Assembly: GCA_029821755.1 (NCBI GenBank)
Contig: JALGSV010000015.1
Location: 1,936 to 65,935, forward strand
DNA: 64,000 nt
Direction: 5' to 3'
Source of the DNA: Candidatus Zipacnadum vermilionense
GTDB lineage: Bacteria; Armatimonadota; Zipacnadia; Zipacnadales; Zipacnadaceae
Shown in pieces: positions 16,815-19,831 of this stretch; the stretch's first letter is position 1; each line of letters opens with the position of its first letter. A model generated the notes under the pieces. That model was not told where the DNA came from and ran no database searches. It worked only from the letters and a program-made list of their open reading frames with translations. Made by a program: the position numbers and the translations under genes.

Positions 16815-16901
16815 ACCTGGCATTATTAGTATATCAGCACGTCCCCCCTGCGTCAATCACCTGTCAGTCGTCACCTGTCAGCCGTGTTACCAAGTCTCCT
16901 C

Positions 16902-16930
16902 TTGACATGACCGGCCGGGTATGTTAGTAT
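16902..16930 (+). promoter_or_regulatory. candidate promoter TTGACA-N17-TAGTAT upstream of arsR-like gene
   Basis: Consensus -35 with a good -10, 16 nt upstream of ATG 16947. A partial dyad TTCATCG...GAAATGA overlaps the start, as would be expected for an ArsR/SmtB operator. Confidence 0.45.
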
Positions 16931-16946
16931 TTCATCGATTACTGAA

Positions 16947-17249
16947 ATGACCCCGACCGGTACAGGCGTTAGCGAGGTTTGCGAACTGTTCAAGGCCCTT
17001 GGCTCGGAAGCGCGCCTCAGGATCGTGAGGGCCCTGCGGGGACGGGGTTTGTGCGTGGGAGGCCTGGCGGCTCGTCTCGACATGAGCCCGAGCGCCGTGT
17101 CTCAGCACCTGCACGTGCTCCGCCGAGCGGGTCTGGTTGTCTCCGACAAGCGAGCGAACTTCGTGCACTACCGCCTGAGCCCGGACGCCGCCCGCAAATG
17201 CGAAGCCGCCGTCCGCCAAATACTCGCAGAGCCTGAGGAACAGCAATAG
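16947..17249 (+). CDS. ArsR/SmtB-family metalloregulatory transcriptional repressor
   Basis: 100-aa winged HTH (LRIVRALRGRGLCVGGLAARLDMSPSAVSQHLHVLRRAGLV). Confidence 0.8.
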   Translation: MTPTGTGVSEVCELFKALGSEARLRIVRALRGRGLCVGGLAARLDMSPSAVSQHLHVLRRAGLVVSDKRANFVHYRLSPDAARKCEAAVRQILAEPEEQQ

Positions 17250-17282
17250 CCATTACGGCTGCCAAGAAAGGAGGCAGAGACA

Positions 17283-17426
17283 ATGTGTGATCGCGGATCA
17301 TGCCAGAAACCCAAGAAACTCGTGGGGAAGCCTGAGGAATGCACGCCCGAGCAGATCAAGCAGTGCCACGGGGATGTGAAGAAGCATCGCTGTGTGACAA
17401 ACGCAGGGGAGACTCGCGAGCGATAG
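17283..17426 (+). CDS. 47-aa Cys/His/Lys-rich small protein, candidate metal-binding micro-protein
   Basis: Strong [11 protein letters not shown] 8 nt upstream of the ATG. Translation is MCDRGSCQKPKKLVGKPEECTPEQIKQCHGDVKKHRCVTNAGETRER (5 Cys, 2 His). It lies between the ArsR gene and the methyltransferase and is not in the ORF track. Confidence 0.45.
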   Translation: MCDRGSCQKPKKLVGKPEECTPEQIKQCHGDVKKHRCVTNAGETRER

Positions 17427-17431
17427 GAACT

Positions 17432-18112
17432 ATGAGAGCCGAAGCAAACGGACCCCAGATAGCGGGGCCCGCGGCCGGTGCGCTTCCGGACCCTTGTGCC
17501 TTCGTCGCCGACGATGTGCTGAGATACTGTGCACCGCTTCCGGGCCTTTTGGTGGACTTGGGCTCGGGTCCCGGCGCCGTAGGGCTTGCACTGGCCCGCG
17601 CCGCTGGCCGCGCCGTCTTACTGGTTGATCCGGACGAGAAGGCGCTACGGCAGGCTGCTGACAGGGCAGGGCAGGAGGGGCTTGCCGGCCGCGTCGCTAC
17701 GGTGCTGGGCCGGGCGGAGGCGCTCCCCCTCCGAAGTGATACGGCTGCGCTCGTGGTGAGCCGGGGCTCGATCTTCTTCTGGGACAATCCCGTCGCTGGA
17801 TTGCGCGAGGTATATCGGGTACTGCGCGTGGGAGGCAAGGCGACGATCGGCGGCGGTCTGGGCACCGAGTACCCAGAGTGGGCCCGCTTGGAGTTCGGTC
17901 GGCGGCGTCTCGAGGGCGAGCGCAGCCGAGGGGCAGAGAGCTATGGCGAGTTCCAGCGCCTGCGACACCCCTCCACCTTCCGAGCGTGGGGACAGGGGGC
18001 GGGGCTGGGCAGCTTCGAGGTGGTGGGAGACGAGGGCCGGTCTGCCGAGGCGTCGTTTGCCGGTGCGGGCATCTGGCTGCGATTCACCAAGGGGTGCGCT
18101 GATGACCGATGA
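17432..18112 (+). CDS. class I SAM-dependent methyltransferase
   Basis: Motif I LVDLGSGPG and motif II LLVDPD. The start was reassigned to MRAEANGPQ (ATG 17432), directly after the micro-ORF stop. Confidence 0.7.
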   Translation: MRAEANGPQIAGPAAGALPDPCAFVADDVLRYCAPLPGLLVDLGSGPGAVGLALARAAGRAVLLVDPDEKALRQAADRAGQEGLAGRVATVLGRAEALPLRSDTAALVVSRGSIFFWDNPVAGLREVYRVLRVGGKATIGGGLGTEYPEWARLEFGRRRLEGERSRGAESYGEFQRLRHPSTFRAWGQGAGLGSFEVVGDEGRSAEASFAGAGIWLRFTKGCADDR

Positions 18113-19097
18113 GGCAGACCTGGTCATCCAGGTCGAGGGCTTGAGCAAGCGCTACGGTGACGTTCGGGCCGTGGACAACGTGGGCTTCACCGTCCGGCGG
18201 GGCGAGGTATTCGGCTTCCTGGGACCCAACGGCGCGGGCAAGACAACCACCATCAATGTGCTGACCGGGCTGGCGCGGGCGGACGCGGGGACGATCCGGA
18301 TCGGCGGGGTTGACTGCACGGGCAACCCGAAGAAGGGCCAGCACCTGATCGGGGTAGTTCCCGATGAGAACAACCTCTACCCGGAGTTGACGGGGTTCGA
18401 GAACCTGTGCTTCTGCGGCGCGCTGTATGGCATGCGGCGGCCCGAGCGCGAGGCGCGGGCGCGCGAGCTTCTCATGACCTTTGGTCTTGTCGAGGCGGCG
18501 CGCCGGAGGTTCGGCGGCTACTCGACGGGGATGAAACGCAAGCTCACCATCGCGGCCGGCCTCATCCACCACCCGCCCCTCCTCTTCCTCGATGAGCCTA
18601 CCACCGGCCTCGATGTCGCCAGCGCCCGTCAAGCCAGGCAGCTCATCGCCGATCTGCACCGCGCCGGTACCACGATCTTCCTGACCACCCACTACATCGA
18701 AGAAGCCGAACGGCTCTGTGACCGCATCGCCTTCATCGTGAGCGGGCGAGTGGTCCGCCTCGAGCGGGTCACGGACCTGGTACAGCCGCACCAGGCCCGC
18801 CGTGTGCTGCTCGTATCCGTGTCCGACGCTAAGGCGGGACTCGGTGAGGAGTTGACCCTTGCCTTTCCCGCCTACCGCGCCGCGCCCGCTGGTCCCGGGC
18901 AAATCCGGGTGGAGTCGGAGGAACCGATCTGCATCGGCCCTCTGGTGCGGTTTCTGGAGGAGCGAGGGGTCGAGGTGCTCGAAGCTCGCCAGGTACGTCC
19001 TTCCCTGGAGGATGTCTTCGTCGAGATCACCGGTATCGCGATAGACGCCATGCGTAAGGAAAAGGAGAAACGCGGCGCGAGGGAGGGCGCGGGATGA
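18102..19097 (+). CDS. ABC transporter ATP-binding protein (ABC-2 type exporter subunit)
   Basis: Walker A GPNGAGKTT, the signature YSTGMKRKL and Walker B LLFLDEPTTGLD. The start was reassigned to MTDEADLVIQVEGL. Confidence 0.85.
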   Translation: MTDEADLVIQVEGLSKRYGDVRAVDNVGFTVRRGEVFGFLGPNGAGKTTTINVLTGLARADAGTIRIGGVDCTGNPKKGQHLIGVVPDENNLYPELTGFENLCFCGALYGMRRPEREARARELLMTFGLVEAARRRFGGYSTGMKRKLTIAAGLIHHPPLLFLDEPTTGLDVASARQARQLIADLHRAGTTIFLTTHYIEEAERLCDRIAFIVSGRVVRLERVTDLVQPHQARRVLLVSVSDAKAGLGEELTLAFPAYRAAPAGPGQIRVESEEPICIGPLVRFLEERGVEVLEARQVRPSLEDVFVEITGIAIDAMRKEKEKRGAREGAG

Positions 19098-19831
19098 AAC
19101 AGTGGATCGCCTTCTGGAGCATTCTCGTCAAGGACGCGCGCTGCTATTATCTCAAGCCCCCCAACATCAGTTGGGCCCTGATCTTCCCGCTGGCCTGGAC
19201 GGGGATGTTCTTTATCAAGTCGGGGACCGGCCTGGACAGCGTCATGACGCTGCTGCCCGGCGTGGTCTCCCTGTCCATCCTGTTCGGGACCACCTCCCTG
19301 CTGGCGGTGGCCGTGACTTTTGAGAAGAGGGGCCGCTCCTTCGAGCGGCTGCTGCTCGCCCCCATACCGCTGGAAGTACTCATGCTAGCCAAAACGTCGG
19401 GGGCGATCCTCTTCGGCATCGCCAACGCCTTCGTGCCCCTGGCGATAGCCGCCTGCTTTGCAGACCTATCCCACGTGGCCTGGGCTGCGACGGTTCCGGC
19501 CGTAGTCTTGATCGCGGTCGCCTCGGCCTTCCTGGCCTTATTCATCGCCGTCTCGGTGAGCGAGGTCTTTGAGGCCCAGACCTTCTCGAATTTTTTCCGT
19601 TTCCCGATGATCTTCCTGTGCGGGCTGTTCTTCCCCCTCGCGAAGCTGCCCGTGTTTCTCCGCCCGCTTTCCTACCTGCTGCCCGTGACCTACGGCGCCG
19701 ACATCCTGCACGAGGCGATCCACACCGCCGGGACCATGCCCCTGGCCCTAGACTTCGGTATGCTCTGCGGCTTCTGTGTCGTCCTGTTTGCGCTTAGCCT
19801 GCGGAACATCCGGCGCCGATGGATCCTCTGA
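19094..19831 (+). CDS. ABC-2 family transporter permease
   Basis: Six predicted TM helices with ABC-2 membrane-protein topology. ATGA overlap with the ATPase gene. Confidence 0.75.
   Translation: MKQWIAFWSILVKDARCYYLKPPNISWALIFPLAWTGMFFIKSGTGLDSVMTLLPGVVSLSILFGTTSLLAVAVTFEKRGRSFERLLLAPIPLEVLMLAKTSGAILFGIANAFVPLAIAACFADLSHVAWAATVPAVVLIAVASAFLALFIAVSVSEVFEAQTFSNFFRFPMIFLCGLFFPLAKLPVFLRPLSYLLPVTYGADILHEAIHTAGTMPLALDFGMLCGFCVVLFALSLRNIRRRWIL

Follow-up and report, generated by a model that had tools for sequence, protein, structure and literature searches.

Among the sensors with which bacteria respond to metals and stress, ArsR/SmtB-type repressors are the largest family, and the ligand site of nearly all known members lies within the winged-helix dimer. 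Here, we analysed a stretch of 64,000 nucleotides (nt) from Candidatus Zipacnadum vermilionense (contig JALGSV010000015.1, positions 1,936 to 65,935; in the following referred to as the window), in which the gene of such a repressor is followed by a micro open reading frame (micro-ORF) for a protein of 47 amino acids (aa) and by genes for an S-adenosylmethionine (SAM)-dependent methyltransferase and an ATP-binding cassette (ABC) exporter of the ABC-2 type. Based on gene neighbourhoods in related loci, the conserved core of this module is the ArsR regulator together with the domain encoded by the micro-ORF (the micro-domain), with the ABC-2 exporter as the commonest cargo and the methyltransferase as an optional component. 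We read the locus as an autoregulated efflux operon whose switch would be a two-part ArsR sensor with a detachable domain of four cysteines and two histidines (Cys4His2), a reading to which we give about an even chance. ArsR sensors as such are known; judged from the curated families and literature searched, one whose Cys/His module is an autonomous unit that can be detached would be new.

In the archaeal copper clusters of the TRASH/YHS type, a regulator with a C-terminal TRASH domain is found together with a small TRASH-only protein and an exporter, so that, as in the locus described here, a small Cys-containing metal-binding domain occurs either fused to the C-terminus of a helix-turn-helix (HTH) regulator or free beside an efflux pump. 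However, the motif of the micro-domain reads C-x12-C-x7-CH-x5-H-x-C and has no Pfam match at E ≤ 1, and it is combined with an ArsR protein and an ABC-2 exporter, not with a P-type ATPase. The pair of the zinc sensor SmtB and the metallothionein SmtA, to which the initial annotation had compared the locus, likewise consists of an ArsR/SmtB regulator adjoining a small Cys/His-rich protein. This comparison does not hold in detail: the genes are co-directional here and in some loci fused (16/68 ArsR-linked loci), the window ArsR is without the alpha5 His ligands of SmtB, and the micro-protein has no metallothionein match in Pfam. With five Cys in 47 residues, of which four are conserved along with two His, it falls outside the bacterial metallothioneins.

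By analogy, the closest mechanistic precedent in the literature would be SrnR/SrnQ of Streptomyces griseus, where the ArsR-family DNA binder SrnR needs the small Ni-binding partner SrnQ (PMC11672702). In both cases an ArsR-family repressor is encoded beside a small partner, which in SrnR/SrnQ is thought to hold the ligand site (PMC11672702), whereas the output is an ABC-2 exporter here and superoxide dismutase genes there, and fused forms are found for the present system. A resemblance between SrnQ and the micro-protein themselves is without support, the latter matching no Pfam or NCBIfam family. For CmtR and some As(III)-responsive ArsRs, the ligand site is made up of the winged-helix core and a flexible C-terminal segment (PMC11672702). 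The ArsR partners of the micro-domain similarly combine Cys36 with Cys residues in the tail or linker, but the additional segment is in this case an autonomous domain of ~38 residues, which can be separated or arranged in tandem.

Genomic association of the micro-domain with ArsR

The micro-ORF (17283–17426, + strand) encodes the protein MCDRGSCQKPKKLVGKPEECTPEQIKQCHGDVKKHRCVTNAGETRER with five Cys (positions 2, 7, 20, 28 and 37) and two His (29 and 35), and Pfam and NCBIfam scans at E ≤ 1 returned no match, in agreement with the initial annotation, which had listed it as an unannotated, Cys-rich ORF. The five-gene order of the window is shared by the loci L009/L010, L011 and L013, where the 47-codon ORF is kept with all five Cys and both His, so that the micro-ORF is conserved in synteny. 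Over its first 38 codons, 6–13 synonymous and 6–8 non-synonymous codon differences were counted, and the synonymous ones were at least as frequent in five of six pairwise comparisons, the exception being the pair of the window and L011 (6 vs 8). Judged by this conservation, the micro-ORF is a genuine gene.

One genome per species was scanned for the micro-domain, which gave 485 matches; the best 80 loci, i.e. those most similar to the window ORF, were used for the analysis of gene neighbourhoods. All of these 80 loci come from uncultured bacteria (Planctomycetota, Armatimonadota, Desulfobacterota, Zipacnadia, Chloroflexota, Ignavibacteria, Synergistota and others). Neighbours were mapped by tblastn with the five proteins of the window, and neighbouring ORFs were taken from a mechanical ORF caller that is noisy in GC-rich DNA. 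On this approximate basis, an ArsR gene lies immediately 5′ of the micro-ORF on the same strand in 65/75 loci. Genes for an ABC ATPase and an ABC-2 permease are found downstream of the micro-ORF in 48/69 loci and a methyltransferase gene in 15/69 (absent in 54/69). Where the ABC pump is lacking, ArsR is still present in 15/21 loci, the cargo then being a pair of ArsP_1-type permease halves or a MOT1-like transporter, with no obvious cargo in other cases.

Regulator and micro-domain are encoded by a single fused ORF in 16 of the 68 ArsR-linked loci and by split genes in the remaining 52. The same architecture, with ArsR at the N-terminus and the micro-domain at the C-terminus, was found in three proteins from the profile search (P0172, P0230 and P0237), two of which carry the annotation of an ArsR-family regulator at their source. 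Since the fused ORFs are many and spread across genera, we argue that they are probably real and not assembly frameshifts. The Met-Cys that opens the free ORF is still present in the fused proteins.

A reverse census was anchored on the permease and comprised 43 loci on metagenome contigs whose permease is 72–78% identical to that of the window. ArsR and micro-ORF were both present in 17 of these loci, ArsR alone in eight and neither in 18; a micro-ORF without ArsR was never observed (17/17 with ArsR, hypergeometric P = 2.6e-6). Adjacency, fusion and the permease census thus tie the micro-domain to the regulator and not to the pump or the methyltransferase.

The junction between both genes shows some further peculiarities. 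At a number of loci counted as split (L018, L023, L025, L037, L047, L064, L078, L084, L088 and others), the ArsR frame enters the micro-ORF for 42–51 nt in another frame, and the stretch TGTGCTGC yields a Cys whichever of the two frames is read, as part of ...KCAAM... for ArsR and of MCCN... for the micro-protein. Such an overlap could reflect a recent frameshift fission of a fused gene or represent a way to make both forms. In L072 (~5375–6000), an ArsR ORF of 209 aa runs into a DsrE-like domain ahead of the micro-ORF, and 350–600 nt separate ArsR and micro-ORF in L042 and L066.

The Cys4His2 domain family and the putative ligand site

A word-indexed search with the micro-protein recovered four relatives only. 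Profile searches yielded 345 sequences at E ≤ 0.001 among 1.84 billion representatives (50% identity), nearly all of them 40–90 aa long, and 2094 clusters in a collection of 5.8 billion sequences. Every one of these clusters is unnamed or labelled 'hypothetical' and none of the 2094 contains a Pfam domain; neither a paper on this domain or module nor a curated family was found. The signature of the domain reads C-x-x-P-E-x-L-K-G-K-P-x-E-C-[ST]-P-E-Q-I-[KR]-x-C-H-G-[DE]-x3-H-P-C, in which C20, C28 and C37 (numbered as in the window protein) are invariant and C7, H29 and H35 are conserved to at least 90%. A profile search of PDB sequences gave nothing but a chance match of 20 residues to Nse4 (E = 0.44), and Foldseek against the PDB with the model of the micro-protein returned no match (best E = 9.4). 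One candidate, P0140 (2628 aa), was dropped as a low-complexity false positive. Some family members, such as P0004, carry two to four domain copies within one ORF, and at L038 (5890–6288) three clear copies are accompanied by a Cys-rich spacer. In L001–L005, the gene for a relative of 57 aa (P0003) comes directly after those for an HDOD-HisKA histidine kinase and a response regulator of the HTH_17 type, which take the place of ArsR; this fits a signalling accessory role.

The regulator gene of the window (16947–17249, + strand, 100 aa) encodes a winged-helix repressor that belongs to the ArsR/SmtB family, with scores above the curated cut-offs of both Pfam HTH_5 (PF01022; 59.6 bits, cut-off 22, E = 2.8e-16) and NF033788 (88.2 bits, cut-off 55). 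Its solved relatives include HlyU, SrnR (7p6f, E = 2.9e-9), NmtR, SmtB and CzrA. Across 74 ArsRs that adjoin or are fused to a micro-domain, Cys36 (LCVxAL, at the start of helix alpha3) is the single invariant Cys (99%). Cys12 of the window protein is conserved in 1% of these partners, and the position of its Cys85 in helix alpha5 is occupied by Cys in 20% and by Trp in 53%, which makes it a clade feature. A second Cys in the tail or linker is present in 41/56 split and 16/16 fused forms.

We take Cys36 to be the equivalent of Cys32 of R773 ArsR, the first Cys of ELCVCDLC. The window ArsR reads GLCVGGLA at this place and keeps the first Cys alone. Among the partner ArsRs, too, residues other than Cys occupy the second and third positions, which separates them from the As(III)-sensing alpha3 type with its three Cys. 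The window protein also differs from the alpha5 zinc-sensor type (SmtB, CzrA), with no His in its alpha5 region RLSPDAARKCEAAVRQILAEPEEQQ, and from the persulfide-sensing type, scoring 47 bits against a cut-off of 155 with the BigR model NF040642 and having no Cys in alpha2, one of the two helices (alpha2 and alpha5) that carry the Cys pair of BigR/SqrR. Since Cys36 is the sole invariant Cys and the alpha5 His are missing, ArsR alone would be without a complete known alpha3, alpha3N or alpha5 site. This gap may be complemented by the four Cys and two His of the micro-domain.

In the two-part sensor that we favour, ArsR would bind a palindrome over its own promoter and repress the operon, and the 47-aa protein would be the free form of the Cys4His2 domain that is found elsewhere as the C-terminus of ArsR. 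An inducer would be bound by the Cys and the two His of the micro-protein, perhaps jointly with Cys36 of ArsR, and this binding would lift the repression. The ABC-2 exporter would then be produced and expel the inducing compound or a derivative of it, with the methyltransferase being co-produced in the lineage of the window. Within this scheme, we infer that the micro-protein binds the ligand and acts on ArsR and that the inducer is exported.

The locus stands for a large group (2094 clusters; 485 matches in species-representative genomes), so far restricted to uncultured bacteria from many phyla of anoxic habitats, in which the ligand site appears to lie in an autonomous domain of ~38 residues that can be joined to ArsR, form a micro-gene of its own or occur in several copies. 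Should the proposed mechanism prove true, a new architecture would join the known sensors and the domain family would receive a name, the highly conserved ABC-2 exporter would become more accessible to study, and it would be evident that a micro-ORF passed over by annotation may encode a domain detached from a neighbouring protein. Pairs in fused and in split form would, moreover, represent a natural design for modular biosensors.

Several observations weigh against the two-part sensor. The AlphaFold model of the free micro-protein (alignment of 64 sequences) reached a mean pLDDT (predicted local distance difference test) of 65.7 and contains one short helix; for the fusion P0172, the winged helix was modelled confidently and the linker and Cys/His domain with a pLDDT below 50. 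The proportions from the neighbourhood survey are approximate because ArsR was mapped from one query, and ~12% of the family members have no ArsR nearby. Furthermore, an ArsR with the same LCV motif occurs with the same pump and without a micro-ORF in 8/43 loci of the permease census and in L173; therefore, the micro-protein is not obligatory for regulation. Finally, tandem arrays of two to four domain copies were found in 16/80 loci, a pattern that suits a buffer or chaperone better than it suits a sensor.

It can indeed be considered that the micro-protein serves in the cytosol as a buffer for metal or as a metallochaperone (metallothionein-like or CopZ-like). It would be co-induced with the pump and either sequester the toxic ion or pass it to the ABC-2 exporter, with ArsR sensing the ion on its own. 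Besides the tandem forms, this explanation could draw on the free-standing copies without ArsR and on the ArsR–pump loci without micro-ORF. It would also agree with the full-consensus Shine-Dalgarno sequence of the micro-ORF (AAAGGAGG, 17267–17274, + strand, 8 nt 5′ of the ATG), which suggests an expression above that of the regulator. The initial annotation had even called this the best ribosome-binding site in the window, an overstatement in view of the 20 occurrences of AAGGAGG within the 64 kb. However, four conserved Cys and two conserved His would hold one, at most two, ions per domain and thus provide a small capacity, a fusion to a DNA-binding protein (16/68) would be unexpected, and the link to ArsR is tighter than the link to the pump. 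In addition, we know of no ABC-2 exporter that takes metal from a cytosolic chaperone. We therefore regard a buffer or chaperone acting without a sensor role as unlikely, though as an option that deserves consideration; the two jobs are compatible in one micro-protein and may coexist.

Hints at the nature of the inducer come from accessory genes. A trio of extracytoplasmic function (ECF) sigma factor, zf-HC2 anti-sigma factor and Metal_resist protein was found in 7–8 loci, and two loci from Brocadiaceae have an RND pump gene upstream; together with the conserved His, this favours a transition-metal inducer. A DsrE-like gene (at least eight loci), TauE (one locus) and the genes for TusA, DsrE, NifS and NifU adjoining L006 favour reactive sulfur. 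Methyltransferase-like genes that recur at the position of the window gene (the family of the window itself, a second Methyltransf_11 type and a TrmO-like protein) favour a metalloid or chalcogen. Judging by these neighbours and by the ligand set, the probable candidates for the inducer are thiophilic transition metals (Zn, Cd, Cu, Ni, Co), metalloids, and reactive species of sulfur or selenium. The broad class of a metal or metalloid resistance module, as proposed initially, stays reasonable, whereas the analogies to metallothionein, ArsM and an exported peptide each fail a defining test. The NCBIfam scan of the accessory proteins gave nothing informative. One of them, a highly conserved DsrE-like protein of 106 aa (MKLGMIITQTDPETVFNALRLALYSLEQGD...) encoded between micro-ORF and pump, had no NCBIfam match.

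The same genes bear on the idea that the four Cys hold an Fe-S cluster or a redox-labile zinc and that the domain turns ArsR, in strict anaerobes, into a sensor of oxygen, nitric oxide, oxidants or persulfide instead of metal. The number of invariant or almost invariant Cys is exactly four (C7, C20, C28 and C37), the hosts seen are all uncultured bacteria living in anoxic sediments or comparable environments, and, in addition to the DsrE-like, TusA, NifS/NifU and TauE genes of some loci, a peroxiredoxin or a hybrid-cluster protein can be encoded beside the same pump. Nevertheless, we find redox sensing quite unlikely: the two conserved His and the trio of ECF sigma, anti-sigma and Metal_resist proteins indicate metal ions, cluster-assembly genes are not regularly linked, and an efflux pump would be an odd output for a redox sensor.

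The methyltransferase and the ABC-2 exporter

The methyltransferase gene (17432–18112, + strand, 226 aa) encodes a class I SAM-dependent fold, based on its match to Methyltransf_11 (59.5 bits vs 21.2, E = 5e-16), with the SAM motif VDLGSGPG at residues 41–48. Among solved structures, that of the uncharacterised protein MMP1179 (PDB 3DLC, E = 5.7e-22) is the nearest. At least 96 clusters, mainly from Planctomycetota, make up its family, which shares the motifs SRGSIFFW and YPxWA and has C33, located just upstream of the SAM motif, as its sole conserved Cys (91% of 91 homologues). The protein scored below every NCBIfam cut-off, including those for ArsM (NF008823, 33 bits vs 263; NF040539, 14 vs 240), UbiE/MenG (TIGR01934, 34.6 bits vs 158), BioC (26 bits vs 185) and PrmC (20 vs 199). 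Its best match, DVU_1556 (NF045667), reached 43 bits vs 155 with half of the profile covered. On these scores and its distribution, the methyltransferase is an optional accessory of the module and neither ArsM nor a housekeeping enzyme; the initial annotation had already pointed out the missing ArsM Cys triad.

Short, leaderless members of this family lie within ArsR operons (L009–L011, L173 and L175). Relatives with ~50% identity (L012, 5001–5768; P0014–P0090) are mostly 245–255 aa long, stand alone and carry an N-terminal segment resembling a signal peptide, e.g. MMRHFRVLSCVGALAISSLLAVAVAFGQA. For an enzyme that depends on SAM, secretion or anchoring in the membrane would be unusual.

The layout, in which the gene of an ArsR-family repressor precedes those of a class I SAM methyltransferase and of a transporter, is similar to that of ArsR-ArsM operons, which the initial annotation had taken into consideration. 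In such a system, the methyltransferase would act on As(III), Sb(III), Se, Te or sulfide, perhaps presented by the micro-protein, and the ABC-2 exporter would remove the product. The translational coupling of the methyltransferase to the pump, the three types of methyltransferase-like genes at this position, the conserved Cys just before the SAM motif and the weak matches to the ArsM and UbiE models are all in line with this explanation. It appears improbable, however, given the low ArsM score, one family-conserved Cys instead of the three or four of ArsM, and a transporter of the ABC-2 type. Moreover, the methyltransferase is missing from ~3/4 of the micro-ORF loci, and its relatives with ~50% identity are free-standing and have signal peptides. 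A pathway of uncultured anaerobes distinct from ArsM, in which the micro-protein would be a carrier that binds a soft metalloid, sulfur or selenium species at its Cys/His site, reports this load to ArsR and passes it on to the single-Cys methyltransferase before the ABC-2 exporter expels the product, is not favoured either, because the methyltransferase occurs in only about a quarter of the loci; we hold it to be distinctly improbable.

The two following genes encode an ABC ATPase (18102–19097, + strand, 331 aa; ABC_tran, PF00005, 106.6 bits, E = 2e-30) and an ABC-2 permease (19094–19831, + strand, 245 aa; ABC2_membrane, PF01061, 83.6 bits, E = 1.9e-23), which, as adjoining genes, make up an ABC-2 exporter. 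As in DrrAB exporters, an ATPase with a DrrA C-terminal region is translationally coupled to a six-helix ABC-2 permease, but both proteins remain below the cut-offs of the DrrA/DrrB subfamily (TIGR01188, 288 bits vs 312; TIGR01247, 67 vs 223), so that the ATPase can be described as DrrA-like. A close solved structure of the permease was not found. The relatives of the ATPase in the 48/69 loci with a pump downstream of the micro-ORF are 37–79% identical to the window protein. Permease relatives with 72–78% identity were obtained as the best 80 of 475 confirmed metagenome matches (L093–L172), and by this measure the permease is an unusually conserved exporter. Its gene contexts in L093–L172 are very different and often without a regulator; among the neighbours are a transporter of the MOT1-like kind, the second type of methyltransferase, an FmdE-like protein, and a hybrid-cluster protein or peroxiredoxin.

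The order of small ORF, methyltransferase and ABC exporter had also been taken as a sign that the micro-ORF encodes the precursor of a modified peptide, which would be methylated and exported by the ABC-2 system. This local order is the one feature in its favour. The entire domain is conserved, as opposed to a conserved leader with a variable core, and it forms the C-terminus of ArsR proteins in 16 fusions. Most loci lack the methyltransferase (54/69) and 21/69 the exporter, and neither maturation enzymes nor a peptidase-domain transporter were found among the neighbours. The locus thus falls outside the clusters for ribosomally synthesized and post-translationally modified peptides, and we consider an exported peptide very unlikely.

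Operon layout, promoter region and flanking genes

ORF and domain analysis places all five genes on the + strand, and their coordinates bear out the single operon with start/stop overlaps that had been described for this order. The micro-ORF and the methyltransferase gene are separated by a gap of 5 nt, the methyltransferase and ATPase genes share 11 nt, and the ATPase/permease junction is an ATGA with an overlap of 4 nt. No intrinsic terminator was detected after the permease gene, the fold of 19826–19925 having a z-score of −0.84.

Upstream of arsR, a sigma-70-type promoter-like site was found at 16902–16930 (+ strand; TTGACA-17-TAGTAT with TG extension, 10/12 matches), and its −35 and −10 hexamers are invariant across the aligned upstream regions of L009, L010 and L011. 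The palindrome ATTTCA-N8-TGAAAT (16929–16948, + strand) overlaps both the −10 hexamer and the start codon of arsR; it is the sole match within the 64-kb window, where none is expected by chance. In L009–L011, the block TATTTCAnnGATTACnGAAATG is kept despite an ArsR identity of only 66–75%. We regard the palindrome as a candidate operator because promoter and palindrome stay nearly invariant in these three related loci while the ArsR proteins diverge, and we infer from its position and conservation that ArsR may bind at 16929–16948.

The window has a G+C content of 67.3%, and the nearest relatives of the module are found in Armatimonadota and Zipacnadia genomes. On the other side of the arsR promoter, a tRNA-Ala(GGC) gene lies on the minus strand (16739–16814), accompanied by a divergent promoter-like site (TTGACG-17-TATACT, 16856 to 16828). 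Between these two promoters, a 14-nt tandem direct repeat, TCACCTGTCAG(T/C)CG, occupies 16857–16884; L011 has one copy of this unit and L009 none. A mechanical ORF of 510 aa (15251–16783) extends across the tRNA, and therefore the true start of this dihydrolipoyl-dehydrogenase-like gene must be further in. Downstream of the module, the gene at 21094–22467 encodes a secreted protein that is glycoside-hydrolase-26-like and ends in an Ig-like region at its C-terminus. As a glycoside-hydrolase-26-like gene is also found downstream in L011 (4519–5904), the L011 contig comes from a close relative of the window organism.

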